A stretch of 40,323 bases of DNA from Candidatus Heimdallarchaeota archaeon (lineage in GTDB: Archaea; Asgardarchaeota; Heimdallarchaeia; Heimdallarchaeales; Heimdallarchaeaceae). The notes beneath the pieces were generated by a model. That model did no database searches, had not been told where the DNA came from, and was given only the letters and a program-made list of their open reading frames with translations. The stretch is from positions 1-40,323 of the forward strand of contig DXJF01000089.1 of assembly GCA_019057375.1 (NCBI GenBank), written 5' to 3'. Positions 25,118 to 40,200 of the stretch are shown here, piece after piece. Made by a program: the position numbers and the translations under genes. Within the stretch, counting starts at the first letter, position 1. Every line of letters begins with the position of its first letter.

Positions 25118-27178
25118 TTAATCAGTAGTTTCTATTTCTTCTTTAATTTCTTCCTTTTTCTTAGCTGATCCACTGAATAGGAAAGCTGACAAGCTCTTAA
25201 TATCGTCCATCTTTATTTCCATATCTTCTAATTTGAAATTTTCATCTAAAATAGTTTCTTTCTTCTGAACTAGAAAACTAGCGAAGTCTTGAATATCAAC
25301 TGCGGAAAAATTTATAGAAGTATCAGTTGCACTAACTTCTTCTTGAACTGGTTCAGGAGAAGATTCTTTCATGACGACTACAGGTTCTGGTTCAGGAACA
25401 GTTTCTTCAGCAACTTCTGTTTCTGAAATAGCGTCTTGAATAATGACTTCTTCGACAACTTTTACAACTTGTGGAACTGGTGGAGCTATTGATTCCGAGG
25501 ATTCTTCGATTTTTACTTCCCTTTCTTCAACTATATCTGAAAATTGTTGTTTTAATTTCATATCTAATGATTCAGGTGAGGGAACAAGTTTTTCTTCTTT
25601 AACGATTTCCACCTTTTCAACTACTGGAGGTTCAGGCAGTTCTATAGCTTCCTCAAGTTTTTCAGGAACAGGAGGATATTCTTCAACATCTTCTTTAATA
25701 GCTTCCATAATTTCAGAGATTGGTTCTGGTTCAGGAACTTCTACAGGAGCAGAAACAATTTCTTCTGGTTCTATGGCAACCTTAGTTATCACAATTTTTT
25801 CCTTCTGGAAGAATGATTCGTCTTCTATTTGAACTGGTTCAGCTTCAACAACTGGAATCTCTTCAAAAACCTCAACGTCTTCTGCTGTGCTGGTTGGTTG
25901 AGAGACAACTTTGTCTACTAAGTCATCTACTTCTAATTCAGTTGATGGAACAACTTCAGTTACTTTTAGTGGTTCTTTCACAACTTCTGTTACAACAGGT
26001 TCAGGTTCAGGAACAATTTCTTCAGCTGGCTCGATAACTACTGTTGTTGTAGGTTCTGTCACTACCTGTTCTGTAGGTTCAGGTGGACTAACTCCTGCTG
26101 ATGATTGAGCAAATTTAAAGATCAACTGAAAGAGAAGCTCTTTTCTTTCCTCAGAAATTGGGGAAAAAGAGGTAATTATGAGATAGTTGTTTGCTAAATC
26201 GAACAACATGGCATGAACTTTACCGCTGTCAGAAGTTAGAATATCACCAGAAGGATCAATTTCTTCAGTATTATCTTTAATTCTAGATTTGAAATCGTGC
26301 AAAGCTACCAGATATTCCATAGAATTATCTGCAGAAACAGATGCATTGGAAGAAGCACCTGTAATAGGGGAATGAGTTTTCTTATCAATAAGAACTATTT
26401 CAATGATATCATAGTCTGTTAAATCAAGTTGAAAATTGAGTTTTCCAAAAGTAGGTAATAGAGGTGTTGGTTCAGGATTTAGATAATCTCTCAAAATTGC
26501 GACTTTTTCATCCTCAGCATGTTCCAAAACATAACTTTGGAATTCTTCGCTCTCTTCGACTTTTTGTCCAACATTGGAAACTAACTCAAATCTTTTTGTA
26601 TTTATTCCAGCTTCTGCCATTATAGTAAAAAGTAGTTCTCTTAAGCTATCTTTATAGTAAATACTAGTATTTTCAAAGTCAACTTCGAATCTTGTATCAG
26701 CAAACATCTCTCGAACGTGCTGGTGAATTACAACCATCTGATCAGGAGTAACTAAATCCACTTTATGGCATAAAACAGTGATATTTCCTTCAGGATTTTC
26801 TTTTTTGAATTGACGTATAGTAAAACTGAAACGCCTTTCAGACTCTTCAAATAATTCAGGTTTAGTGACATCAACAATCCATATTAACAGTTTTACATTG
26901 GAAAAAACAAGATGACGAAAATGAGTAACAGCTTCATTCCAATACGATTCTTGTCCACCAGAATCAATAATCATACTTGTTTGGTCTTCATCTAAGAATT
27001 GTCTTTGATAATGTACAGTAGCCATGTATCCGTAGACTTCCTCTGGTTCTTTATTGAAGAAGACAACATCTTTTATAGCAGTTTTTCCTGCAGCTTGAAG
27101 ACCCATTAGTATAATTTTGTCTTCAACCTCAGTTACACTTCCTTTCTTGCCAGATAATTCGTCGAAGAGATAGGACAC
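25118..27178 (-). CDS. Rag/Gtr-like GTPase with roadblock-like domain and a long acidic E/P/V-rich tail
   Basis: MGLQAAGKTAIKDVVF, MAT, IDSGGQESYW, VFSNVKLLIWIVD, G4 HKVD, TSIY; EIVLIDKKTHSPIT...YLIITSF; then a low-complexity tail. GTG start. Confidence 0.85.
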   Translation of the reverse strand: MSYLFDELSGKKGSVTEVEDKIILMGLQAAGKTAIKDVVFFNKEPEEVYGYMATVHYQRQFLDEDQTSMIIDSGGQESYWNEAVTHFRHLVFSNVKLLIWIVDVTKPELFEESERRFSFTIRQFKKENPEGNITVLCHKVDLVTPDQMVVIHQHVREMFADTRFEVDFENTSIYYKDSLRELLFTIMAEAGINTKRFELVSNVGQKVEESEEFQSYVLEHAEDEKVAILRDYLNPEPTPLLPTFGKLNFQLDLTDYDIIEIVLIDKKTHSPITGASSNASVSADNSMEYLVALHDFKSRIKDNTEEIDPSGDILTSDSGKVHAMLFDLANNYLIITSFSPISEERKELLFQLIFKFAQSSAGVSPPEPTEQVVTEPTTTVVIEPAEEIVPEPEPVVTEVVKEPLKVTEVVPSTELEVDDLVDKVVSQPTSTAEDVEVFEEIPVVEAEPVQIEDESFFQKEKIVITKVAIEPEEIVSAPVEVPEPEPISEIMEAIKEDVEEYPPVPEKLEEAIELPEPPVVEKVEIVKEEKLVPSPESLDMKLKQQFSDIVEEREVKIEESSESIAPPVPQVVKVVEEVIIQDAISETEVAEETVPEPEPVVVMKESSPEPVQEEVSATDTSINFSAVDIQDFASFLVQKKETILDENFKLEDMEIKMDDIKSLSAFLFSGSAKKKEEIKEEIETTD
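25300..26090 (-). repeat. Low-complexity Glu/Pro/Val-rich coding region with recurring EPEPV / EPEEI / PEP motifs
   Basis: Translation such as EPAEEIVPEPEPVVTE, EVPEPEPISE, VPEPEPVVV; on the + strand GGTTC(A/T)GG recurs. Confidence 0.75.
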
Positions 27179-27287: not shown

Positions 27288-30200
27288 TTAATCTCCATTT
27301 TGTAACTTTTCCATTTCTTGTGCAGCAAGCATAATAATTACAGATTGTTTTCGAATATCAACTATAATATCTTCAACAACTTTGAGATTTTTCTTAGATT
27401 TCAAATCATCAATTAGATCATCAACATTCCCATAAAGATATTCTTGATAGTTAAGTAGTAAATTACCATACTCAGAATCTGCTAGAACAATAAGAGAAAG
27501 ATTTTCGAACCCTCCTCTAGCCATTTTATTTTCTAGCTGAACACCATGAACAAAAGCTACCATCTTCTCTGTTGGAAGAATAATTGACCCTACTCTTCTA
27601 CCTGCATCATGTTCCTCAAAACCAAGTGAGCTATATGCTTGATCAGCTATTTTAAGAAGGAAATTTTCAACGCCAATTCTCATCCTATTGATATATCGCC
27701 CAATATCTAAACTATGGTCAGAAACTAATGGAATCGGTCCTTTTCTCTGATCGAAAATCGTTAGAATGACTCCTGGTGACATAATCGAATAATTTAATGC
27801 TATATCTTCGTCTGTAACTCTTTCCATCAATTCTTCAAATGATTTAGGTCGAGTAACTTTATAAATTATGAAAGATATCAGAGCAGCTACTCCTATGCTT
27901 CCACCAATGATTAGATAAAGTAACCATCGAGGGAATTTTGTTGCTTCAGGTGGTGGAAATGTTATGACTATATCCTCCACATCAAAAGTAATGGAATCCA
28001 TTGTAGGAGTTTCATTGAAACCAGCAGATATTCGTATATAGTCAATATTTGATTCAAGTACATATGAAATTGAAGCTATCCCTTCTTCATTAGTGAAATA
28101 AGAATCAAAGAATGTATCGTTATAATCAGTGAATTGGAACTTAACTAAAGAAGGAGAATCTACACTGTCATTCTTCCAATAGATGAAAATGTAGAAATGA
28201 ATTTCTGCTAAGGAAATTGGTGTTCCATCCGTTAGTGTAAGATTCGCATAAATCGTTACCGCGGTTCCTTCTAGAATCGTAGAATTGGAAACCCAGACAT
28301 TAAAGAGTATTGGAATAGGCTTTATTTCAAAATCAAAAGCTGTTGTAGAAGTTGTATTAGCAAAATAGAATAAAGATTCAACACAAATTATAAGCGAGAA
28401 ATTTCCCTTACTATTTAATGGTATAGAAGAATAAATAAAAGTACAGATTGAAGTAATCGAATCAAAAGTGAAATCAAATGAAGTCTCATTAACAAATAAT
28501 TTAGTAATTGTTGTCTTTTGTCCTAGATTATTTTCAAGATACAAGGATATTTGGAGGTCTTCTCCGTATATGACACTAGAATCACTTTCCTCCAAGATAG
28601 TAGAATTACCTTCTTTCTTCAGAATTGTGAGATAGAGTCTTGTAGATGTTCCTCCACCAGTTGGTCTTGAAAATTGAATAAATACCTGAGTTTCTTTTAT
28701 GAAAGAAACATTTGTTGCATGAACTTCAATCTCATAAATACTAGTAGTGTTAGTTACTTTGACTGTCAAATTTAGTGATACATCTTGTATTACGGTATAG
28801 TAAAGGTCATCTATTTGATATAGGCTTGAGTTCAATACTTCAACTTGGTAAACAAAAGTGTCATTATATGTCAACACATGGTGATAGTCATTTGTGAAAT
28901 TTGCAGGGAATATAAAATTGAGTTTAATATCACTTACCCTGAATATATATATATGAGTTACATTGTTTGTTGAATGACTCCAAGTATTGTCAACGAATGT
29001 TATTGTTAAATTATGATCTCCATCTGTTAGAGGTACAGAGCTAAAATAAAATGGGGGGTCAGAAATAGTGTTTAACTCTCCTGAATCCCAATTATAAGAG
29101 ATATAATCAATATCAGAATCTAAAGTTTTGTTAAACCACAGAGTAGTATTCCCTTGTACATTTATTATTGTATTAGGTTCAATATATTCTAGATGCAGAC
29201 TTGTTTCATTATAGAAGTAAATATCACCAATTGGTGGGGCAAAATCTATTTCAAAAGTGTAATTATACAATGCAAGATTTCCTAGTATATCACTTGCTTC
29301 AATAGTAACTGTGGCAAACTCACCTGTAGCATAGAGTGGTGATAATAATCCAAGATTTGTAACAAAGTCAAAAGAAGGATAAGACCAAAAACCTGGTAGA
29401 GCATCCCAGAAATATCTAATGCTATTAATTGTAGCTTCATTTTCATCGTTTGAATCAAAAGACAATAGTGAATATTCATTAACTTTAGTCAGATTTGTAG
29501 GATCTGTGAGATCAGCATTAGGGGCTAGGCTGTCAATTATTAAGTTGTAAGATATCATTCTTTCATTTCCCAACGTGTCATTAGCATAGATTTTTACAAC
29601 TAATGGTCCATCAGAATCACTCAATATGATACTGTCGGTGAAGGGAATTTTTAGTCCGCCATAGATTCTATAATAACTGTAAGTTGTTTCATCATCATCA
29701 GTTATAGTTACTTGAACCAAAGCATCAGCTGGAACATACAAATTTCCATCAACTAAACTATAATCCACCAATTCAGGAATTGTGATGGTTAGATCTGGTT
29801 CTGTTGTATCTATGGTGAATCTTATGTTCTGATAAGCTATGTTTCCAGCTAAATCTCGAACTCTTAAATCCAAAGTATGAAAACCATCTGCATATGGTAA
29901 AAGAGAGAAAACAAAATCATAAAATAAGTTCTTGAAAATTTTTCCATCAATTGAATATTCAATTACTAGGGTTGTATTATCAGTAATGAAATTATCTTCT
30001 ACACAGATAAAAAAATTCGCATTACTAAGATATCGTGAATTATTGTAACTTTGAAAATTACTTATAACGGGTGCAGTTCTATCAACTATGAATGTGAAAT
30101 TAAAGATATGTTGATCATCTGTTAAATTGAAAGTTCTTATTGTTAACTTATTGGTTCCTTCAATTATAGGTATTGTATCTTCACCACTTAGAACCAGTGA

Positions 30201-32057
30201 GGTAGTAGTTAAAGATTCATAGGTTTCGTCACCAGAATTCCAGCTGTAATAACAGTTAGTATTACTCCTTTGTATTATTAATTCAACATCATTTCCACCT
30301 TGAACATACTGCCCATCATTTAAATTGACTAAATCTACGTTGAAAAAAGTGTCATCTGCCCAAAATTCAAAATAAGAATATGAAATATGATTAAAAACAT
30401 CTTCTACATATACTTTTAATATTCTTTTACCTATACTAATTGGTAAATCAGTTGTGTAAACATTACTTGGTACTTCTGTCCAGCTCTGATTTGCTCCAGA
30501 ATCCCAACTATAGTTTAAATAGCTAAATGTTGAGCTATCAGTAATTTTCAATTCTATATTCTTACCTGGAACATAGAAACTCTCATTTACAACATTATAG
30601 AGAGAGATAATTGGAGTATCTGAATCAAATTCAAAAATATAGAAATAAGATTTAGTCTCATAGAAATCTGATGTTGTTAGATTTAAATCGTGCCATCCAT
30701 TGAACATATCCGTAACTAAATCATAAGGAGATAGTAGTGGAAATTGCGTTCCACTTGAATCCCACTCATACATAACTGTACTAACATTGAAAATGCTGAA
30801 ATCTAGTATAAATCCACCTTCTAACCTATCTGAACTCACCGCATTATTCAGAATAAGATTTTCAGCTGATGCATCATAACCTAGTTTATACATTGTAGTG
30901 TTTGTATTTCCAAAATCTGGATCACTTGCATTGATCTCCAGATAATGCCACCCATGTATATCAGGAATTTGTGTAGTAGTATTATCTGAGAAGGGATTCC
31001 ATGTACCTCCATCCCATCTATACGAACTGACTGACCCTAGAGTCACATCAATTGCTACATTCTGTTGAGTACCATAAACTGTTTCGTTTGTGACACCATA
31101 AACATCAATATCAGGAAATTCTTTCGAACGTAAATATAGTTGAACTCCCGTCATTCTTTGATTATTATCTAAAGTATAAGTATTCCCATAAGTAGGATCA
31201 CTGATAGTCCAAATAAGAGTACCACTGATTCCACCAGCTGGATATCCTGTGTACATTAATAATGAATAACTAGATGGAATTGTGTCGTACATATATTCTA
31301 TGTCATATTTTAATCTATATCCTGCAGGAATTGTATAGGTGCCTGTTATCTCAGAAGAAAATGTTCTCTGTGTTAGAGTTGTATTAACAGGTACGTTAGT
31401 GGTAGTAGAAGTCAATTCAACAGATGATTTATCTGCAGGGTTAAATAAATGCACACTAAATTTCATTGTTATCGCGATGTAATCAGAGAAATATACCCCA
31501 TCATTTGTTCTGATATAAGTTAAATAATACACTCTTCCGCTAATTTCCCAATCTTCAGTAAAGACTGGACTGAACATTTTTGAAGGCTCAGAAGGAAAAT
31601 TTCTCTCCCTTAAGTGATGCCATTCTCCTGCAGAGCTAGGATGAGTAATTGGGTCAGTACTTATAGATCTCCAATAGAGCTCTTTAGGTATGTGTCCTCC
31701 ATCTTTAACTTCATCATAAGTAACCCATTCTATAACATTAGGATAGTAAGCTGTATCATTATTGTCTGGTTCATTTGGATATTCTGGCTCATCTATCAAG
31801 TCGTTTCCTGCTTCCGTTCCTCCCCCGCTGAAGAATGCGAATGTTTGGAAATCTCCTGGAATCAAATCTTTTTTTATCAAAAATGAATCATCTTTCAGAT
31901 AATAATCACTATCGAGATTTGAATCATCTTGTGGAACTAGCTCATTAATTGGATTATTATTACTCAGGTCTACATCCTGGATTTCATAATAAATTATTGA
32001 ATTAAAACATAATACAATTAGAAGGATTGACATTAAAGATGATTCTTTTCTTTTCAT
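27288..32057 (-). CDS. 1589-aa receptor-like surface protein: signal peptide, tandem Ig-like repeats, single TM helix, cytoplasmic uDENN/longin-like domain
   Basis: N-terminal hydrophobic ILLIVLCFNSII; many N-x-S/T sequons; repeats of Y-x-W-D/N...G-x-H-x-L-x-I-x-A-x-D; TM WLLYLIIGGSIGVAALISFIIY (about 27861-27926); cytoplasmic GVILTIFDQRKGPIPL...ARGGFENLSLIVL. Confidence 0.8.
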   Translation of the reverse strand: MKRKESSLMSILLIVLCFNSIIYYEIQDVDLSNNNPINELVPQDDSNLDSDYYLKDDSFLIKKDLIPGDFQTFAFFSGGGTEAGNDLIDEPEYPNEPDNNDTAYYPNVIEWVTYDEVKDGGHIPKELYWRSISTDPITHPSSAGEWHHLRERNFPSEPSKMFSPVFTEDWEISGRVYYLTYIRTNDGVYFSDYIAITMKFSVHLFNPADKSSVELTSTTTNVPVNTTLTQRTFSSEITGTYTIPAGYRLKYDIEYMYDTIPSSYSLLMYTGYPAGGISGTLIWTISDPTYGNTYTLDNNQRMTGVQLYLRSKEFPDIDVYGVTNETVYGTQQNVAIDVTLGSVSSYRWDGGTWNPFSDNTTTQIPDIHGWHYLEINASDPDFGNTNTTMYKLGYDASAENLILNNAVSSDRLEGGFILDFSIFNVSTVMYEWDSSGTQFPLLSPYDLVTDMFNGWHDLNLTTSDFYETKSYFYIFEFDSDTPIISLYNVVNESFYVPGKNIELKITDSSTFSYLNYSWDSGANQSWTEVPSNVYTTDLPISIGKRILKVYVEDVFNHISYSYFEFWADDTFFNVDLVNLNDGQYVQGGNDVELIIQRSNTNCYYSWNSGDETYESLTTTSLVLSGEDTIPIIEGTNKLTIRTFNLTDDQHIFNFTFIVDRTAPVISNFQSYNNSRYLSNANFFICVEDNFITDNTTLVIEYSIDGKIFKNLFYDFVFSLLPYADGFHTLDLRVRDLAGNIAYQNIRFTIDTTEPDLTITIPELVDYSLVDGNLYVPADALVQVTITDDDETTYSYYRIYGGLKIPFTDSIILSDSDGPLVVKIYANDTLGNERMISYNLIIDSLAPNADLTDPTNLTKVNEYSLLSFDSNDENEATINSIRYFWDALPGFWSYPSFDFVTNLGLLSPLYATGEFATVTIEASDILGNLALYNYTFEIDFAPPIGDIYFYNETSLHLEYIEPNTIINVQGNTTLWFNKTLDSDIDYISYNWDSGELNTISDPPFYFSSVPLTDGDHNLTITFVDNTWSHSTNNVTHIYIFRVSDIKLNFIFPANFTNDYHHVLTYNDTFVYQVEVLNSSLYQIDDLYYTVIQDVSLNLTVKVTNTTSIYEIEVHATNVSFIKETQVFIQFSRPTGGGTSTRLYLTILKKEGNSTILEESDSSVIYGEDLQISLYLENNLGQKTTITKLFVNETSFDFTFDSITSICTFIYSSIPLNSKGNFSLIICVESLFYFANTTSTTAFDFEIKPIPILFNVWVSNSTILEGTAVTIYANLTLTDGTPISLAEIHFYIFIYWKNDSVDSPSLVKFQFTDYNDTFFDSYFTNEEGIASISYVLESNIDYIRISAGFNETPTMDSITFDVEDIVITFPPPEATKFPRWLLYLIIGGSIGVAALISFIIYKVTRPKSFEELMERVTDEDIALNYSIMSPGVILTIFDQRKGPIPLVSDHSLDIGRYINRMRIGVENFLLKIADQAYSSLGFEEHDAGRRVGSIILPTEKMVAFVHGVQLENKMARGGFENLSLIVLADSEYGNLLLNYQEYLYGNVDDLIDDLKSKKNLKVVEDIIVDIRKQSVIIMLAAQEMEKLQNGD
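28945..31120 (-). repeat. About eight degenerate tandem Ig-like repeats (~85-95 aa each) in the surface protein
   Basis: Cores: YRWDGG..GWHYLEINASD; YEWDSS..GWHDLNLTTSD; YSWDSG..GKRILKVYVED; YSWNSG..GTNKLTIRTFN; YSIDG..GFHTLDLRVRDLAGN; YRIYGG..GPLVVKIYANDTLGN; YFWDA..VTIEASDILGN; YNWDSG..GDHNLTITFVD. Confidence 0.75.
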
Positions 32058-32059
32058 TT

Positions 32060-32842
32060 CTACTTCCTCAATTCATTTTCTATATTGCTTATTTTTCCTA
32101 AATTTTGAGTTTCTAAACTCAGGTTTTCACTTATTATTTGTCTAATATCAAAGGATCTAAAGAAGCAATCAGTTATTTCTTCTTGGAATTCTGGAATTCC
32201 TTCTTGTGTCATATTTGATATTTTAATTGGAATGATTCTATCTAGATCAATATTAACCCCAATTCTCTCTTCAACATGGTTTGAGATGAATTTTCTACCT
32301 GCTTCTATTTCTTCTTCTTTAACAATTATTGTATCTTCTTGATCTAGATGTGTGCCTAATAAAACAATATTTGTATATTCTTTTATTAGCTCTTGTTCAA
32401 TAGCTCTATTCAGCCAGTATTCAAGATTTTGGAAAGTAGTTATGTTGTTAAGATTATAAGTTAGAACTAACACAATAACCTCATTTATAGACCTAATATC
32501 AAAGTATAAGTCTAAAGCATCTTCAAAAGCTAACCCTGTTCCTTTTTCAGCTTTTCCTTTTTGTCCAGGCATAATGAAAAGTTGAGAACTAATAGTAACC
32601 CTAAATTTTTCAATATTCGAATGAGCAATGAAATATTCAAACTCTAGATTAATAGATTTAGAAATTGTTTGACATCGTGCATTTATAAAACCTCCCTGCC
32701 TAAAACTAGACAAATTCAATGCTGCGTGCGTTTTTCCAGTATGACCATCACCTATGAAAACCACTCCACCTGTACATGTTATATCAGATTCATTACATCG
32801 AATAAGACGTTGAATTTCGTATTTTGGTTTCATAGACAACAA
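32060..32842 (-). CDS. Divergent small GTPase (Rab/Roc-like)
   Basis: G1 GDGHTGKT, G3 position FIMPGQ (no Asp), VLVLTYN, G4 LLGTHLD, G5 ISNMTQEGI. Confidence 0.72.
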   Translation of the reverse strand: MLSMKPKYEIQRLIRCNESDITCTGGVVFIGDGHTGKTHAALNLSSFRQGGFINARCQTISKSINLEFEYFIAHSNIEKFRVTISSQLFIMPGQKGKAEKGTGLAFEDALDLYFDIRSINEVIVLVLTYNLNNITTFQNLEYWLNRAIEQELIKEYTNIVLLGTHLDQEDTIIVKEEEIEAGRKFISNHVEERIGVNIDLDRIIPIKISNMTQEGIPEFQEEITDCFFRSFDIRQIISENLSLETQNLGKISNIENELRK

Positions 32843-32933: not shown

Positions 32934-34088
32934 TTACTTTAGTTTTTCAATTTTTCCAAAATCCCTCTCCAAAGAGAGTTCCTCTAGGATTCTATCATCT
33001 GATGGGGATGTTTTTTCCATTACCATCCTTGCAAGTAATTCTCCTAAACCTGGACCTAGCATAAATCCTTGACCACACATCCCTACTGCATTGATATATC
33101 CTTCAAGATAAGTTACTTTGCCTACAATTGGAGAGCCATCAGGTGTCATGGGGTAAAGTCCTCTCCAGGTTCTTCTCATTTTCAAGTGTTTTGTCCTGGG
33201 TATAAGACCAATAAGCCTTTGTGAGACTTGCGGTAGAAAGGCTGATGTTTCATTTTCATTTATTCCAGGTATAATTGGTTCTGGTGTAAGGCATAGAATA
33301 AACTTGCCTTCTATATTTTGGTAGAAATAGAAGTTTTTGGTTCCTTCACCAGGTCTTAAATCTACAACTAGAGGATAAATGAATTTCTGAACAGGCTCAC
33401 TGATACCAGATTCGTGTGAGTCTGGAAATATTGGTAAATTGAGTCCAACCATTTCACCTATTTGTTTAGCTGAAGCTCCAGCTGCATTAATAATAAAATC
33501 TGTTTCATACGCACTCTTATTTGTAATAACTTTCTTAATAGGTCCATTCTTGAGTTCAACATTTGTCACAGATTCCTTAAAGAAATATTCAGCTCCAGTA
33601 GTAAGAGATTGTTTTTGAATGGCATAAAGAGTTTTTAGTGGAGAAGAGTTTCCATCTTCAGGAGAATACGTTCCCCCTAGAAGACCCTCTTTGCTGATTC
33701 CTGGTACTAACTCAATGATTTTCTCTTTATCTACCCAATTAATGTTTAGTCCTGATTCTTTTTGGATGACCAGATTTTCTTTCATGAGTTGTTCATGAGC
33801 TTCATTATATGCAACAAATGTATAACCACCTTGGAACCATTCTATATCATGACCGTGTCTGACCTCCCAATTAGAGAGGATATCTATTGAATCTTGACAT
33901 AAGATTATTTTTGAAGGATTGGTATGAGTGGCTCTTATTCCTCCAATAGCTTTCTTGTTCTGACCTTGGCCTGCTGAAGGAAGTGATTCTATAACTGCAA
34001 CCTTCAACCCTTCTCTAGACATTGCATAAGCTGCTGGAACACCTACACTACCTGCACCAATAATTATGACATCGTATCTCTTAGTCAT
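32934..34088 (-). CDS. DAO-family FAD oxidoreductase (sarcosine oxidase beta / dye-linked proline dehydrogenase beta-like)
   Basis: IIGAGSVG, INAAGA, RTWRGLYPMTPDGSPIVG, GMCGQGFMLGPGLG. Confidence 0.88.
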   Translation of the reverse strand: MTKRYDVIIIGAGSVGVPAAYAMSREGLKVAVIESLPSAGQGQNKKAIGGIRATHTNPSKIILCQDSIDILSNWEVRHGHDIEWFQGGYTFVAYNEAHEQLMKENLVIQKESGLNINWVDKEKIIELVPGISKEGLLGGTYSPEDGNSSPLKTLYAIQKQSLTTGAEYFFKESVTNVELKNGPIKKVITNKSAYETDFIINAAGASAKQIGEMVGLNLPIFPDSHESGISEPVQKFIYPLVVDLRPGEGTKNFYFYQNIEGKFILCLTPEPIIPGINENETSAFLPQVSQRLIGLIPRTKHLKMRRTWRGLYPMTPDGSPIVGKVTYLEGYINAVGMCGQGFMLGPGLGELLARMVMEKTSPSDDRILEELSLERDFGKIEKLK

Positions 34089-34092
34089 ATTA

Positions 34093-36186
34093 CTAATCCT
34101 CCTCCTGAGATCCAGTGAAATACTTCAAAGGTACTTCTATAAATAGAGGTCTTTGCACAAATGGTGTTATTTCATCGTAAGAAATACCTTCTTCTCTGAA
34201 CAGCTTCTCTATTAGTTTTGAACAAGTTTTAGCTCCACAAGCCCCCATTCCAACTTTTGATTTAGCTTTCAGTTCATTTGCATCAGTTATTCCCATTCTG
34301 ATTAAAGCTCTGATTTCTCCAGCTGTAATTCTTTCACATCTACAGATTATTGCTTCATCGGGGATTATATCCTGATACAACTCTATTTCCTTAAGTTCAT
34401 AGGCTTTAGGAATTTTGAATGATACTGCTTCCAAAGCAACTTCTTTGGGTAGTTTTACTGTAATAAGTTGAGTCTTAGAATATTTTTTCAAAATTCTAAC
34501 CATATCAACTTCATGAATTCCCAACTCCTCTCCATCTTCATTAACCACCATAAGTTTATCTCCCTCCTCTACTTTTTCAACAAAGATTTCTGTTGGAATT
34601 GTTACTTTAGGAAAATTTGAATCGTCTCTATAATCTAGAAGAGTAACTGCTAAGCCCGGACAAACTGCAACACATTGAGCACAGCCTATACATTCAACAT
34701 CTTGTTCTTTTTTAAATTCTGGTAAACCTAATATTCCACCTTCAGGAATAATAATGAGTTCTTTGGGACAAACTGAAGTACAGGGATTACAAGGTATTTC
34801 TTGATTACAATGAAAGACAGGATAAATTCCTTCTTCCCTGATAGGTTTCTCTATTTTTACAACTGGACCTGGATGACTTTTGAGAATTTCAGCTTTGTCT
34901 TCCCATTCAATTGGCACATCTTTTTTGGTAAGACTAAGAGATTGACCTATTTTCATACCTGCAATTTTACCACTGAACATTGCAGAGGAAGCTTCAGCAA
35001 TTTCTAGAGCATCTCCTGCTGCCCACACATCCATACCAAATTCCTTTGCTTTCATGTAAAACTCATTTACAGGATCTAAACCAATTGCAATAAGAATTGT
35101 ATCAACTTCGAATGTTCTTTCTGTTCCTTTAATCGGTTGAAATCTCTCATCTATTTGCGATATTGTAACAGCTTCAACATGATTTTTTCCATGTGTAGCT
35201 GTAACTGTATGTTGAGTATAAATTGGAACATCTAACCTTCGTAGCTTATCTTCATGAACTTTGTATCCCCCACACTTTGGAAGAGCTTCAACCAATCCTA
35301 CTACCTCAATACCTGCTTGAATGGCATGATATCCAGCGATAATTCCAACATTCCCTCCACCTATGATGAAAATCTTTTCGCTTGATTTAACTAAATCACG
35401 GTTCACTAATGTCTGAAAAGCTCCAGCTCCATAAACCCCTGGTAAAGTATTACCTGGAAAAGCAAGCATTTTTTCTCTCGCACCAGTTGCAACCAGGAGT
35501 TTCTTCGGATTAATGTGAACATACTTATCGCCCTTAAGTACTCCAACTAATTTATCTGAAAAAACAGCTATACAAGGACTATCTAACCAAACATCTATGT
35601 TTTCAAACTCTTTTATCTGTTCTTCGAGTATCTTAGCAATATCAATTCCTCGGGTCCCAGCGAATGAATCTTTAACAGACCCAAAAAACTTGTGAGTTTG
35701 TAGAAGAAGTTTACCACCAAGTCGATCTTTATCATCAATAAGAATGATTTTAGCTCCAAGTTTAGCTAAAGTCAGAGCTGCTTGCAATCCTGCTGGACCT
35801 GCACCAATTATGAGAACATCTGTATCTATTGTAGGAATTGGTTTGAACTCCACTTCTTCATCATCTTCTGGAAGAGGAGGATAATCTTCAACACTCTCAA
35901 TTTTTTGACTCTCTTTCAGAGGAGTCATACAAGATTTGAGAGCAATACCATCAACTAAAACTGTACACTGAGCACATTGACCATTTGCACAAAAAATTCC
36001 TAAAGGTGCTTTATCTTCAGGATGTTTCCCAAAAATCTGAATTCCGTTGGCAATAAGAGCTGAAGATATCATCTCCCCCTTTTTACCAAACAACTCTTTA
36101 TCATCAAAAGTAAATTTTACAAATACAGATTCTTCTTCTTGTAAAACGGGATGATTCTTGATTCTTTTTTGTTTATTGGAAAACAT
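34093..36186 (-). CDS. Fused sarcosine oxidase / proline dehydrogenase alpha-like subunit (2Fe-2S, FAD/NAD, 2x[4Fe-4S], BFD-like [2Fe-2S])
   Basis: CANGQCAQC, GAGPAG, ATGARE, GGGNVG, CNPCTSVCP, CIGCAQCVAVCP, ICRCE...GMGACGAKTC. Confidence 0.87.
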   Translation of the reverse strand: MFSNKQKRIKNHPVLQEEESVFVKFTFDDKELFGKKGEMISSALIANGIQIFGKHPEDKAPLGIFCANGQCAQCTVLVDGIALKSCMTPLKESQKIESVEDYPPLPEDDEEVEFKPIPTIDTDVLIIGAGPAGLQAALTLAKLGAKIILIDDKDRLGGKLLLQTHKFFGSVKDSFAGTRGIDIAKILEEQIKEFENIDVWLDSPCIAVFSDKLVGVLKGDKYVHINPKKLLVATGAREKMLAFPGNTLPGVYGAGAFQTLVNRDLVKSSEKIFIIGGGNVGIIAGYHAIQAGIEVVGLVEALPKCGGYKVHEDKLRRLDVPIYTQHTVTATHGKNHVEAVTISQIDERFQPIKGTERTFEVDTILIAIGLDPVNEFYMKAKEFGMDVWAAGDALEIAEASSAMFSGKIAGMKIGQSLSLTKKDVPIEWEDKAEILKSHPGPVVKIEKPIREEGIYPVFHCNQEIPCNPCTSVCPKELIIIPEGGILGLPEFKKEQDVECIGCAQCVAVCPGLAVTLLDYRDDSNFPKVTIPTEIFVEKVEEGDKLMVVNEDGEELGIHEVDMVRILKKYSKTQLITVKLPKEVALEAVSFKIPKAYELKEIELYQDIIPDEAIICRCERITAGEIRALIRMGITDANELKAKSKVGMGACGAKTCSKLIEKLFREEGISYDEITPFVQRPLFIEVPLKYFTGSQEED

Positions 36187-36261: not shown

Positions 36262-39237
36262 CTAATAATAAGACTTTCTCCTACGAATAAAGTATTTATA
36301 CGTTTCAAGCGTTACTAGAGGTATAGTCACAGCAACTAGAATGACTAACCAGTCAAGAATACCTAGGGGGAGAAATTCAGGAAGGAAGGGAAGGATTTTC
36401 TCAGCAAATATCTGTAAAGGTTTGATATACATTAGGAGAATATGCAGTAATGGAACGCTGAAAACAAGAATAAAAACTATCCATTTTCTATCTTCTTTGA
36501 ACGAACGAAAAATGGATTTATTCAATCTTCTTAGACTTAGAACTACGAGACTTTCAGCAATAACTAGTACTGTAACGAACATAGTTCTTGCTTTAGCATG
36601 TGCAAGTGTAACTGGAGAAGAAAGCACAGATCCTGGTTCTCCAAAAAGAATGGGTATTATTCCAGTCTGGTTGAAACTTGAAATCGAAAGTAGATTGAAA
36701 TAACCAAGCAAGTAGACCAATCCACCTGAAAAAGCAAGAGACAAAGCTAAAACAACAAGAGCGAAGATATATCTTTTATTGAAAATTTCTTCATCATCTC
36801 TGGGAGGATAATCCATAATCTCTGCGGTAATACTGTCAAATATGAAAGCTAAAGGAGGGATTAAATGAGCGGTAGAAAAGATGTAAACTCGTTGAAAATC
36901 ATTAACTAAATGGAAACCAGGAATAAAAGAACTAGCAAAATAGATGATAGCTTCAGCAATGTTAAGAGTGATATAAAAGAAAATCATAACACGTATACGA
37001 TCAAATAAACCACGACCTTCACGAATACCAAGAACAGTACTAGTGAAACTGTCATCGGCAATGACAACATCAGAAGCTTGCTTAGCAACTTCAGTTCCAG
37101 CTATACCCATACAGATACCAACATCTGCATTGGTTAAAGCCAAAGCATCGTTAACCCCGTCTCCTGTCATCGAAACTATTTTCCCTTTTCCTTGATATTT
37201 CCCTACTATCACTTGTTTGTGTTGTGGTGATACTCTTGCGAATATTCTTGTATTGAAGAATTCTTCCTCTGTTAATTTCTTTATTTGATTTCCTTCTACT
37301 GCAATCTCTTCTCCCTTTATCATCCCTACTTTTTTTGCTATTGCTTTTGCAGTTATTGGTGAGTCTCCAGTGATCATTATTGGTGTTATTCCAGCTAGGT
37401 AACACTCATCTACAGCATCTTTAACTCCATATCTTGGTGGATCTAGCATACATACGAATCCATTGTATATCAGCTTATTTTCTGCATCATCTCTAATATT
37501 AGGAATAATTGTATCCTTATCCATTGGACGTAGACCTAGAGATATTACTCTATATCCTTGAGCTGCAAATTTACTCACATTTTCCATTATTTTCTCTTTG
37601 TCTTTCTTTTTAATTGCCCTATATTTTTCCGGTTTTCCTATGTGAGTGCATAATGGCAAAACTGTTTCGCTTGCTCCTTTGCAGAATAGTGTATACCCTT
37701 CTTTATCTTGGAATGTTTTACTCATTCTTTTCAATATTGAGTCAAAATTAAATTCTGATAGATATCCATATTGTTTTCTTATCTCTTTTTCCACTATTCC
37801 CGATTTGTTGAATAGAGCCAAAAATGCTCCATCTGTTGGATCTCCTGTTGTTTTCCACGATATTTGGTGATGAGGTTCGAACACTTCTTCTACTATTAAG
37901 TGAGCATTGTTGTTCAATAACCCTCCAACTAGCAGATATTCTAGTGAAGAGTCTTCTGCAAATGGCTTTAATGAATCTGGTAAATGATACTCATCGAATG
38001 ACTCTGGATACTCTTCTCCTAGTGGATATATTGCTCCTTTATTACTATATCCAATACCAGAAACTCCATAAAACTGCTCTGTGTCCCAAATTCTTTGAAT
38101 TGTCATTTGGTTTGAAGTTATTGTTCCTGTTTTATCACTACACAGTATGGAGCTTCTCCCTAATGTTTCTACAGCTGAAAGATTTCTTATTATCACTCTA
38201 TCTTTTGCCATTGACAATACTCCTGTCAGAAGTATTAATGTTGTTAACAGGGGGATGCTAATTGGCATAATTGACATAGATGTAGTAACTGTGATTACAA
38301 TATCTTCTAGGAAAACAATATCACCAAGAGTACCATTGATTGAATGTATAATTGCTTTGTAAATAGCCGAAACCAACAAGAATGCAACAACTGTTAATCC
38401 TAACCACTTCGCTAATCGGTTGACTTTGGATCTGATTGGTATCTCATTTGAACCTATTTCTTGCAGTTCAACAGATAATTTTCCTAATTCTGTAAATATA
38501 CCTGTATTTACCACTAATGCAATTGCTCTTCCAGATTCTAGAAATGTTCCAGTGTAAAGCATATTGATTCTTTGTGAAATTGGAGTATCTTCTTCTAGAC
38601 ATTCTCGGGGAGTATTTGTTTTCTCAACTGCTACTGATTCCCCAGTAAGTGCACTCTCGTTTACTAAGCAATTGCTAGCATAGATAATTCTTGCATCAGC
38701 AGGAATCCTGTCTCCTTGATCCAGTTCAATCAAATCTCCTGGAACTAATAAATCAGCTGTAATGCTTTCAGGGACTCCATCTCTTATTACTGTAGATGAT
38801 GGGGCAGATAGCTTATGAAGTGCATCAAGTTTGAATTGAGCTCTTATTTGTTGGAAAATTGTAAATATGATATTTGCACCAATAATCAACATCCAGAAAC
38901 CTATTTGTCCCCAGACATCTGATGATGATTCTTTGAAAACAAAAGCTTTAATCAATCCTAATATAACCATGATTACTGCAACAATAAGGTAAATATTGAT
39001 GAGCCAATTAAGAAGGGGAGAGATATAAACGTCCCATATCGAACCTTTTACTTTAGGGATAACGTTAGTTCCATATTGTTCCAATCTTTGTTCTACGATT
39101 TCATGCTTGAGACCAAACTTTACATCAGTCTGTAAATCTTCTGTAATTTTCTTTATTGTAGCATTATGAGAACGGAGCTCGATTTGATCATCATAATTTA
39201 GTTTCTTTTTCCCCATCGTTTTCAACCAATATGCCAA
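36262..39237 (-). CDS. P-type ATPase on a P2-like scaffold with non-canonical transport-site residues
   Basis: LVPGD, LTGES, phosphorylation site CSDKTGT, KGASE, DPPR, MITGD, TGDGVNDALAL; M4 reads PISIP instead of PEGLP. Confidence 0.9.
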   Translation of the reverse strand: MAYWLKTMGKKKLNYDDQIELRSHNATIKKITEDLQTDVKFGLKHEIVEQRLEQYGTNVIPKVKGSIWDVYISPLLNWLINIYLIVAVIMVILGLIKAFVFKESSSDVWGQIGFWMLIIGANIIFTIFQQIRAQFKLDALHKLSAPSSTVIRDGVPESITADLLVPGDLIELDQGDRIPADARIIYASNCLVNESALTGESVAVEKTNTPRECLEEDTPISQRINMLYTGTFLESGRAIALVVNTGIFTELGKLSVELQEIGSNEIPIRSKVNRLAKWLGLTVVAFLLVSAIYKAIIHSINGTLGDIVFLEDIVITVTTSMSIMPISIPLLTTLILLTGVLSMAKDRVIIRNLSAVETLGRSSILCSDKTGTITSNQMTIQRIWDTEQFYGVSGIGYSNKGAIYPLGEEYPESFDEYHLPDSLKPFAEDSSLEYLLVGGLLNNNAHLIVEEVFEPHHQISWKTTGDPTDGAFLALFNKSGIVEKEIRKQYGYLSEFNFDSILKRMSKTFQDKEGYTLFCKGASETVLPLCTHIGKPEKYRAIKKKDKEKIMENVSKFAAQGYRVISLGLRPMDKDTIIPNIRDDAENKLIYNGFVCMLDPPRYGVKDAVDECYLAGITPIMITGDSPITAKAIAKKVGMIKGEEIAVEGNQIKKLTEEEFFNTRIFARVSPQHKQVIVGKYQGKGKIVSMTGDGVNDALALTNADVGICMGIAGTEVAKQASDVVIADDSFTSTVLGIREGRGLFDRIRVMIFFYITLNIAEAIIYFASSFIPGFHLVNDFQRVYIFSTAHLIPPLAFIFDSITAEIMDYPPRDDEEIFNKRYIFALVVLALSLAFSGGLVYLLGYFNLLSISSFNQTGIIPILFGEPGSVLSSPVTLAHAKARTMFVTVLVIAESLVVLSLRRLNKSIFRSFKEDRKWIVFILVFSVPLLHILLMYIKPLQIFAEKILPFLPEFLPLGILDWLVILVAVTIPLVTLETYKYFIRRRKSYY

Positions 39238-39387: not shown

Positions 39388-40200
39388 ATGAGTGAACAAC
39401 CTTCAGGTCCCCCAACTGGTCCCCCCGGTGGCCCGCCTAGAGGCCCACCTAGAGGTCCTATGTTTATGAGGGACGAATATCAAAATTTAATAGATGAATT
39501 TACAAAAGATGTTAAAGCTAAATTGAAGAATGATATTGAGAGTCTTATATTGGTTGGTAGTGTTGTTACCAAAGAGCATATTGCTGGAGAATCCGACTGT
39601 GATTTTCTCATTGTTCTTAAGGAAAAAGCTTCTGGAGAAAATCTAGAAAAAACTATGGTCAAGATAAGTGAAGTTGTTGCCAAATATTTAGAAGATCCTC
39701 TATATAGTCCGCTCCTAGATGTCGAAGTTTTAACAAATTCTGAAGTTCCAAAAGAAGGTGAGGGAACAGATTATCCCTGGACTAGAGTTTTAGTAGCTCA
39801 GATGGGTAAAACTCTGATCGGAAAAAATCCTTTTGAAAAAATCAAAATTAAGGAAGAAGATATTAAATCATCAGCAAAAGAAATGGCAGCTATGTTTCTG
39901 GAACAAATGGTGGAAATTCCTAAACTTAATGAAGAGGAAGCTGATGAATATGATAAGCTCTATCTTACTGTAGATGCTATTTTAGGCTGCGGTTGTGCTT
40001 ATCTTTATTACAATGGTGAAAAAGAATTTTACAGAAGTTCTGCAATCATTTTATTTGAAGATAAATATAAAGATAAGATTGACATTGAACCAATTCAAAT
40101 TAGTCACCGATTACGACTAGCTGCAAAGACAGTCAACACAGATAAATTTGCACAGAAAGCTACTAAATTCTGTAAAGAAGTAGTAAAGCAACTTTCCTAA
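39388..40200 (+). CDS. Pol-beta superfamily nucleotidyltransferase with helical C-terminal domain
   Basis: LVGSVV...ESDCDFLIV (GS...DxD) and third Asp in LLDVEV; helical C-terminal region. Confidence 0.78.
   Translation: MSEQPSGPPTGPPGGPPRGPPRGPMFMRDEYQNLIDEFTKDVKAKLKNDIESLILVGSVVTKEHIAGESDCDFLIVLKEKASGENLEKTMVKISEVVAKYLEDPLYSPLLDVEVLTNSEVPKEGEGTDYPWTRVLVAQMGKTLIGKNPFEKIKIKEEDIKSSAKEMAAMFLEQMVEIPKLNEEEADEYDKLYLTVDAILGCGCAYLYYNGEKEFYRSSAIILFEDKYKDKIDIEPIQISHRLRLAAKTVNTDKFAQKATKFCKEVVKQLS
39400..39459 (+). repeat. (x-Gly-Pro-Pro) tetrapeptide repeat at the nucleotidyltransferase N-terminus; local GC-rich island
   Basis: PSGPPTGPPGGPPRGPPRGP; CCTAGAGG repeated in the DNA. Confidence 0.8.

Follow-up and report, generated by a model that had tools for sequence, protein, structure and literature searches.

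A P-type ATPase family of Asgard archaea with a flippase-like M4 motif and a candidate non-calcium ion site on a P2 scaffold

Introduction

In a 40,323-nt contig of Candidatus Heimdallarchaeota archaeon (assembly GCA_019057375.1, contig DXJF01000089.1; this whole stretch of DNA is referred to as the window), we analysed a P-type ATPase whose motif in membrane helix M4, PISIP, resembles that of eukaryotic P4 lipid flippases. The pump is best explained, with a rough probability of 0.65, as a P2-fold ATPase in which ion site II has been erased and site I rebuilt from Asn, Glu, His and Glu, and which would carry one small ion other than Ca2+. In a protein tree its family, which is large, uncharacterised and mostly of Asgard origin, appears as a sister group to prokaryotic P2A Ca2+ pumps, and the PIS motif, as far as alignments tell, is a local variant that does not tie the pump to the lipid flippases of eukaryotes. 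The ion ligands in M4, M5 and M6 are the basis on which P-type pumps are classified and annotated, and here a large family, conserved across Asgard lineages, is labelled 'calcium-transporting ATPase', yet is unable to bind Ca2+ in the known manner. Identifying its ion would correct many annotations, add a new P2 specificity class and shed light on how the archaea closest to eukaryotes manage their ions or metals.

Results

The pump gene and its catalytic motifs

An earlier sequence-only reading of the window had placed the gene at 36262–39237. This minus-strand frame is indeed uninterrupted, but the TTG with which it opens is probably not the start. Translation most likely begins at the ATG at 39216, since the nearest homologues have a length of 984 amino acids (aa) and start at the corresponding Met. 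The features of the gene are as follows, where residue numbers refer to the 984-aa protein and invariance to a 61-sequence alignment of the family.

36262–39216, minus strand: P-type ATPase gene, 984 aa, with ATG at 39216 and stop codon at 36262–36264
39217–39237, minus strand: seven in-frame codons from the upstream TTG (39237), probably a non-coding 5′ leader
38635–38646, minus strand: A-domain dephosphorylation motif TGES, residues 191–194 (T191, G192, E193 and S194 invariant)
38251–38268, minus strand: M4 motif MPISIP, residues 317–322, aligned with PEGLP of Ca pumps (P318, I319 and I321 invariant)
38122–38136, minus strand: phosphorylation motif DKTGT, residues 361–365, with D361 (invariant)
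37666–37680, minus strand: N-domain nucleotide-binding motif KGASE, residues 513–517, with K513 (K513, G514 and A515 invariant)
37135–37167, minus strand: P-domain hinge TGDGVNDALAL, residues 684–694 (G685, D686, G687, N689 and D690 invariant)
36952–36966, minus strand: M5 motif LNIAE, residues 751–755, with N752 and E755 on N768 and E771 of SERCA site I (both invariant)
36853–36879, minus strand: M6 motif FSTAHLIPP, residues 780–788, with F780, A783 and H784 on the Asn, Thr and Asp of N..TD (H784 and P787 invariant)
36550–36564, minus strand: M8 motif VIAES, residues 885–889, with E888 on E908 of SERCA site I (kept in at least 90%)

All motifs quoted earlier (ALTGES, SIMPISIPLLTT, CSDKTGT, TGDGVNDALAL, TLNIAEAII and YIFSTAHLIPP) were recovered in the translation, and PISIP maps exactly to 38251–38265. 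The M8 glutamate E888, which that list lacked, is also retained. With DKTGT, TGES, the TGDGxND hinge and the N-domain Lys, the protein has the hallmarks of the P-type ATPase superfamily (haloacid dehalogenase subfamily IC, HAD-IC), and it scores 258.9 bits on the superfamily model TIGR01494, for which the cut-off is 62.3. The pump is thus predicted to be catalytically competent, its set of catalytic motifs being complete and unchanged in all 61 members.

The ion pocket

The pocket was mapped residue by residue in an alignment with LMCA1 and in a MAFFT alignment with canonical P2A pumps, Escherichia coli MgtA, three ATP8A1-type P4 pumps and one P1B pump. Both agree in placing PISI on PE(A/G)L of LMCA1 and P2A, and T-A-H on (L/V)-T-D.

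M4: pump P-I-S-I-P; canonical P2A P-E-G-L-P (Glu to Ile, Gly to Ser); P4 P-I-S-L-L
M5: pump N-I-A-E; canonical P2A N-x-G/D-E (both ligands retained); P4 K-N-I-V/C-L
M6: pump F-S-T-A-H; canonical P2A N-L-V/L-T-D (Asn to Phe, Thr to Ala, Asp to His); P4 N-V-I/L-F-T
M8: pump Glu; canonical P2A Glu (retained); P4 none

In SERCA, E309, N796 and D800 are the side-chain ligands of site II, and the positions of site I include N768, E771, D800 and E908. Ca2+ binding in pumps of this type requires Glu in M4 and both Asn and Asp in M6. All of the site II side-chain positions are substituted in the pump, two of them by hydrophobic residues. Side chains of the ligand type persist at four of the five site I positions (those of N768, E771, D800 and E908), where Asp has given way to His. 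Among the marks of P2A Ca2+-ATPases, the Glu of M4 PE(G/A)LP and the M6 N-x-x-T-D are absent, and the M5 N-x-x-E and M8 E of site I are present. The earlier observation that the M4 Glu and the M6 Asn and Asp had been replaced is borne out in the alignments to LMCA1 and canonical P2A pumps; these replacements also hold family-wide, so that the canonical two-site Ca2+ pocket has been lost, as had been proposed.

Conservation of the pocket across the family

Homologues were collected as the best 120 matches in 5.8 billion proteins and by a HMMER scan that was exhaustive over 1.84 billion cluster representatives. Each full-length sequence among the best 120 matches reads M-P-I-x-I-P. The Heimdall sequences nearest to the pump have Ser, Thr, Ala or Met at x, and most of the others, labelled Odin, Thor, Hod, Kari, Njord, Promethearchaeota and Bathyarchaeia, have Asn. 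The HMMER scan stretches the family to ∼34–37% identity, with one member labelled Korarchaeota; its distant members have PINLP, PLNLP, PVSIP, PVNFP, PFNFP, PWNFP or PWSFP in M4, with N..E in M5 and His in M6 throughout, and beyond this distance the matches of the scan turn abruptly to PEGLP, N.GE and N..TD. The family pattern is accordingly P-[IVLFW]-[NS]-x-P in M4, Asn/Glu in M5 and His at the M6 Asp position of Ca pumps, both without exception, and a near-invariant Glu in M8, and every member has TGES in the A domain.

In 61 members, down to 40% identity, the residues P318, I319, I321, N752, E755, Q775, H784 and P787 never vary, and at least 90% of members keep E888. The pocket residues (P318, I319, I321, N752, E755, H784, P787 and E888) are among the most conserved parts of the protein at phylum-level distances. 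A private mutation or a sequencing error is therefore excluded by the retention of the motif in >120 homologues and by the invariance of the pocket; close homologues with PEGL, which the sequence-only reading had named as the sign of a private mutation, were not present among them. The same reading had called for the conservation of PISI in Asgard homologues to be determined. Here the Glu-less PI(x)I proved to be conserved and the Ser itself did not, the family consensus of M4 being PINIP and PISIP occurring only at the Heimdall tip.

In a 72-row maximum-likelihood tree (LG+C20, posterior mean site frequency model), the family including the window pump forms one clade, with a support of 98 in the Shimodaira–Hasegawa-like approximate likelihood ratio test (SH-aLRT), and the canonical P2A pumps together with MgtA form another (91). 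A search for relatives of the basal member P0155 returned only canonical PEGLP pumps (from Dictyoglomota and one other bacterium). The family was found in 33 of the 61 sampled Asgard genomes (E ≤ 1e-150) and in 10 of 20 taxonomic families, and all 23 Asgard copies examined retain PI[NTS]I, N..E and His.

Several Asgard genomes have two copies, mostly adjacent on one contig. Adjacent copies lie head to tail on the same strand at loci L044 (G025:C86), L054 (G040:C32) and L057 (G008:C89), and also in genomes G019, G030, G049 and G057. At L054 and L057 one copy has PINIP or PLNIP and the other PINLP or PFNLP, and at L044 both have PINIP. The tandem copies suggest an old duplication followed by subfunctionalisation.

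The P2 scaffold

Both sequence profiles and fold assign the pump to the P2 class, similar to SERCA, SPCA and LMCA1. Its Pfam domains are E1-E2_ATPase, Cation_ATPase_N, Cation_ATPase, Hydrolase and Cation_ATPase_C. Among NCBIfam models, those of type II rank top (PMR1-type 404 bits, SERCA-type 402, IID 390, IIB 368 and IIC 335), followed by IIIB (306), IIIA (295), P5 (232), P1B (183) and the phospholipid-flippase (P4) model (81). Matches to sequences in the PDB are Listeria LMCA1 (E 6e-107), SERCA2 and SERCA1, SPCA1 and Na,K-ATPase. An AlphaFold2 model computed from 61 family sequences has a mean predicted local distance difference test (pLDDT) score of 83, a predicted template-modelling (pTM) score of 0.76 and ten membrane helices, with M4 unwound at 317–319 and M6 at 782–788, i.e. 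at the motif positions. In a Foldseek search of the PDB with this model, the top 50 matches were all SERCA, SPCA, Na,K-ATPase, LMCA1 or H,K-ATPase, the latter including both the gastric and the non-gastric proton pump (E 1e-53 to 1e-57, TM-score up to 0.78). The Cation_ATPase_N and Cation_ATPase_C domains, the ten transmembrane helices and the best profile and fold matches are all those of a type II (P2) scaffold.

Compared with the P2A pumps (LMCA1, PDB 6zhf and 9euq; SERCA1/2; SPCA1/PMR1), domain order, the ten transmembrane helices and the catalytic motifs including TGES are shared, and so are the M5 Asn..Glu and M8 Glu of SERCA; the best sequence match (E 6e-107), the Foldseek matches (E ∼1e-57, TM-score 0.72–0.78) and the profile–profile score (hhalign 1784) point the same way. 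The differences are PISIP or PINIP instead of PEGLP or PEALP in M4, F..AH instead of N..TD in M6, and the separate clade of the family. LMCA1, which transports one Ca2+, has kept PEAL and N..D and has Ala at the M5 Glu, i.e. site II is kept, whereas the pump family is the reverse.

Discussion

Proposed ion site and transport cycle

In the favoured explanation, site II would have been erased by replacement of the M4 Glu with Ile or another hydrophobic residue and of the M6 Asn with Phe or another hydrophobic residue, and site I would have been rebuilt, with Asn and Glu of M5 and Glu of M8 retained and the bridging Asp of M6 exchanged for an invariant His. The pump would run through an ordinary E1/E2 phospho-enzyme cycle, with phosphorylation at DKTGT and dephosphorylation driven by TGES, and would carry one small cation per cycle in the N752-E755-H784-E888 pocket, where S/N320 of M4 and the carbonyls of unwound M4 may assist ion binding. 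The conservation of buried carboxylates across ∼40% identity argues that the ion site is under selection. The two conserved carboxylates, which the aligned P4 pumps lack at these positions, also argue for a cation or a proton as substrate and against a groove for a lipid head group.

A set of one His, two carboxylates and one amide is reminiscent of the transition-metal sites of membrane transporters, e.g. the Asp/His site A of the Zn2+ transporters of the cation diffusion facilitator (CDF) family, and the Glu–His pair could equally serve as a proton relay. The ion would thus be either a divalent transition metal (Zn2+, Fe2+, Mn2+, Co2+ or Ni2+) or a proton or monovalent cation, where we slightly prefer the transition metal. 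What the analysis shows is the family membership, the conserved pocket and the fold; along with the ion, it is the single-site stoichiometry and the direction of transport that we infer. We know of no characterised P2 pump in which site II is erased and His replaces the bridging Asp of site I, and the novelty would accordingly lie in a P2 fold with a new pocket.

Several points weigh against this explanation. The adjacency of N752, E755, H784 and E888 is presumed by homology to SERCA site I and not taken from coordinates. To our knowledge, the single-site P2 pumps (LMCA1, SPCA and PMCA) retain site II and not site I, and a pump with only site I would be unprecedented. The pump scores far under every NCBIfam equivalog cut-off, and therefore no function can be transferred to it from a characterised family. 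No conserved partner was found across Asgard clades in 18 other loci and the window, so that gene neighbourhood failed as a substrate clue and gives no hint of the ion. In the literature we found no paper on PINIP or PISIP pumps, nor on Asgard P-type ATPases beyond a transportome list.

Calcium or magnesium as the substrate

The pump may, following its database label 'calcium-transporting ATPase', transport Ca2+ (or Mg2+) through an unorthodox ion site, which we consider unlikely. Ca2+ pumps head both its profile and its PDB matches, N752, E755 and E888 still offer three of the oxygen ligands of site I, and the Asgard transportome survey lists the homologues as 'putative Ca2+ ATPase' orthologues (PMC7997004). 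Against this stands the family-wide replacement of the M4 Glu and of the M6 Asn and Asp, and scores on the Ca-pump equivalog models are only about half of the cut-offs (TIGR01522, 404.2 versus 798.3; TIGR01116, 402.3 versus 703.4). Moreover, His is a poor ligand for Ca2+ and Mg2+ in general coordination chemistry.

The same genome also encodes two canonical P2A paralogues of 980 and 956 aa with PEGLP, SCNFDE and NLLTD (contig C44, L006:1490-4432; contig C112, L007:3251-6121), which are mutual nearest relatives in the tree and score 604–635 bits on the P2A Ca2+-pump equivalog models. Ca2+ export would therefore be covered by these paralogues, leaving the pump free for another substrate. Two further, shorter P-type ATPases are present in this genome, and that at L002 has the CPC motif of P1B pumps.

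Relation to P4 flippases

The sequence-only reading had proposed that the enzyme may move lipids, possibly as an intermediate towards P4 ATPases. In such a lipid flippase or large-substrate pump, a prokaryotic relative or forerunner of P4, the M4 Ile would act as a hydrophobic gate and Ser or Asn would contact the head group. Pro-Ile-Ser at the M4 break, with Ile replacing the cation-binding Glu as in P4 PISL, and the missing M6 Asp are likenesses to P4 pumps. The host is, in addition, an Asgard archaeon, and P4 and P5 pumps are regarded as unique to eukaryotes, without prokaryotic look-alikes (PMC10654040). Nevertheless, the flippase proposal was not supported, and we judge it very improbable. 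The three aligned P4 sequences have DGET in the A domain, PISL-L/V in M4, YKNI(V/C)L in M5 and no M8 Glu, as well as P4-specific insertions after M4; the pump lacks these insertions and has TGES, PISIP with a second Pro (the I-P ending of cation pumps), LNIAE and the M8 Glu, all of them cation-pump features. Of the top 50 Foldseek matches none was a flippase.

The history of the motif tells the same. Basal members have P-V/W/F-N/S-F-P within P2A-like flanks (LAxAAIP...), sequences labelled Hodarchaeota and Kariarchaeaceae have PINIP, as does the bulk of the family, and PISIP is confined to the Heimdall tip. 'PIS' is therefore a late and local state, derived within a PIN family. The M4 motif is also as close to that of P3A H+-ATPases, which we take to be PIAMP as in plant AHA2 (Pro-Ile-small-hydrophobic-Pro without Glu), as to that of P4, and one family member has PIAIP. 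Like the pump, P3A proteins presumably have just one ionisable residue where SERCA carries D800 in M6, Asp in P3A and His in the pump; they presumably lack the pair of M5 Glu and M8 Glu. The pump is not itself of the P3A type, with a score below the cut-off of TIGR01647 (IIIA; 295.2 versus 615.5 bits) and His at the position of the M6 proton-accepting Asp.

By profile score, special affinity to P4 can be rejected. On the P4 hidden Markov model TIGR01652 the pump reaches 81.1 bits (cut-off 431.25), below the 95 and 100 bits of its canonical paralogues. No P4-class match was found in 151 Asgard genomes (top score 84 bits versus the cut-off of 431). A search of the genome, which is 89% complete, for CDC50 (PF03381), the beta subunit of P4A and P4C pumps only, gave no match, though it had no positive control. 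Profile–profile comparison with hhalign gave 1784 for family–P2A, 321 for family–P4 and 281 for P2A–P4, the second slightly exceeding the third. In consensus states, the family agrees with P2A only in 91 columns and with P4 only in 7, and P2A agrees with P4 only in 7 as well (26, 2 and 2 in the membrane part); these symmetric counts therefore give no hint of a special kinship between the family and P4.

For tree-based comparisons, the P4 sample was three animal ATP8A1-type sequences (a short ATP8A1 seed), with E. coli MgtA added and without P3A, P5 and P2B–D references. In the 72-row tree, the stem that carries P4 is very long (6.9 changes per site) and enters a basal trichotomy without resolution. 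Topology tests used 27 rows and 889 columns under LG+C20+F+G4, and P values are from the approximately unbiased (AU) test. The arrangement of the family with P4 was marginally best (ΔlnL 0, AU 0.58), followed by the family with P2A (ΔlnL 2.0, AU 0.49) and P2A with P4 (ΔlnL 4.4, AU 0.34), so that the three deep placements of these three P4 sequences are statistically equal. When P4 was forced beside the PISIP Heimdall subclade, ΔlnL was 26, with 0.018 by resampling of estimated log-likelihoods (RELL) and AU 0.056, and a nested origin of P4 inside this subclade is disfavoured on the present alignment. The tests neither support nor reject a deep sister relation of the whole family to P4 (AU 0.49–0.58).

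That the whole PI(N/S)IP-His family is the missing sister lineage, among prokaryotes, of the pumps for large substrates in eukaryotes (P4, perhaps P5) is, to our mind, a long shot. If it were true, an Asgard ancestor that lost the M4 Glu would have taken the first step to moving lipids, and archaeal membrane lipids would already be the substrate of some members. As it stands, the comparison is a clean negative for the P4-like 'PIS' motif as a marker of a prokaryotic flippase.

A non-transporting ATPase, e.g. a sensor or scaffold that cycles without substrate, would agree with the lost canonical ligands and with the scaffold roles discussed for some P4 pumps (PMC10654040), and is hardly to be expected, since a disused site would not leave the membrane pocket among the most conserved regions at phylum-level distances.

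Gene neighbourhood of the pump

Although no partner is shared across clades, some neighbours recur locally. In the window (39388–40200, plus strand) and in two Heimdall-family relatives (L042:6444-7178 and L043:10814-11566), a divergently transcribed gene for a 244–270-aa NTP_transf_2 nucleotidyltransferase (PF01909) lies beside the pump; it is absent from the other Asgard clades examined, and its position next to the pump is probably shared synteny. Subtilase and ketopantoate hydroxymethyltransferase neighbours are common within one taxonomic family only. In four genomes, drawn from two taxonomic families, a gene with a molybdopterin-binding oxidoreductase domain (PF00174, MsrP/sulfite-oxidase-like, ∼200 aa) occurs at most three genes from the pump (L048:5520-6116, L051:6829-7413, L055:3517-4158 and L056, the c4 cluster).

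Downstream of the pump the window contains the following genes.

32934–36186, minus strand: oxidoreductase gene pair, immediately downstream of the pump and on its strand
32060–32842, minus strand: protein of 260 aa whose match to the Ras family is weak and partial (E 1.6e-6, residues 121–181)
27288–32057, minus strand: 1589-aa open reading frame with only weak Ig-like (Big_13) and PKD matches
25118–27178, minus strand: protein of 686 aa that starts with a G domain of Gtr1/RagA type (PF04670, E 7e-26), followed by ∼500 residues without Pfam match

The first protein of the oxidoreductase pair (697 aa) combines 2Fe-2S (Fer2_4), FAD/NAD(P) oxidoreductase, 4Fe-4S and BFD-like 2Fe-2S domains, and the second is a 384-aa flavoprotein of the DAO family; we take the pair to resemble archaeal proline/opine/sarcosine dehydrogenase alpha/beta pairs, and it was not found beside the pump in the 18 other Asgard loci. 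Both small-GTPase-like genes are typical Asgard 'eukaryotic signature' GTPases, and the 1589-aa frame between them may encode a large surface protein.

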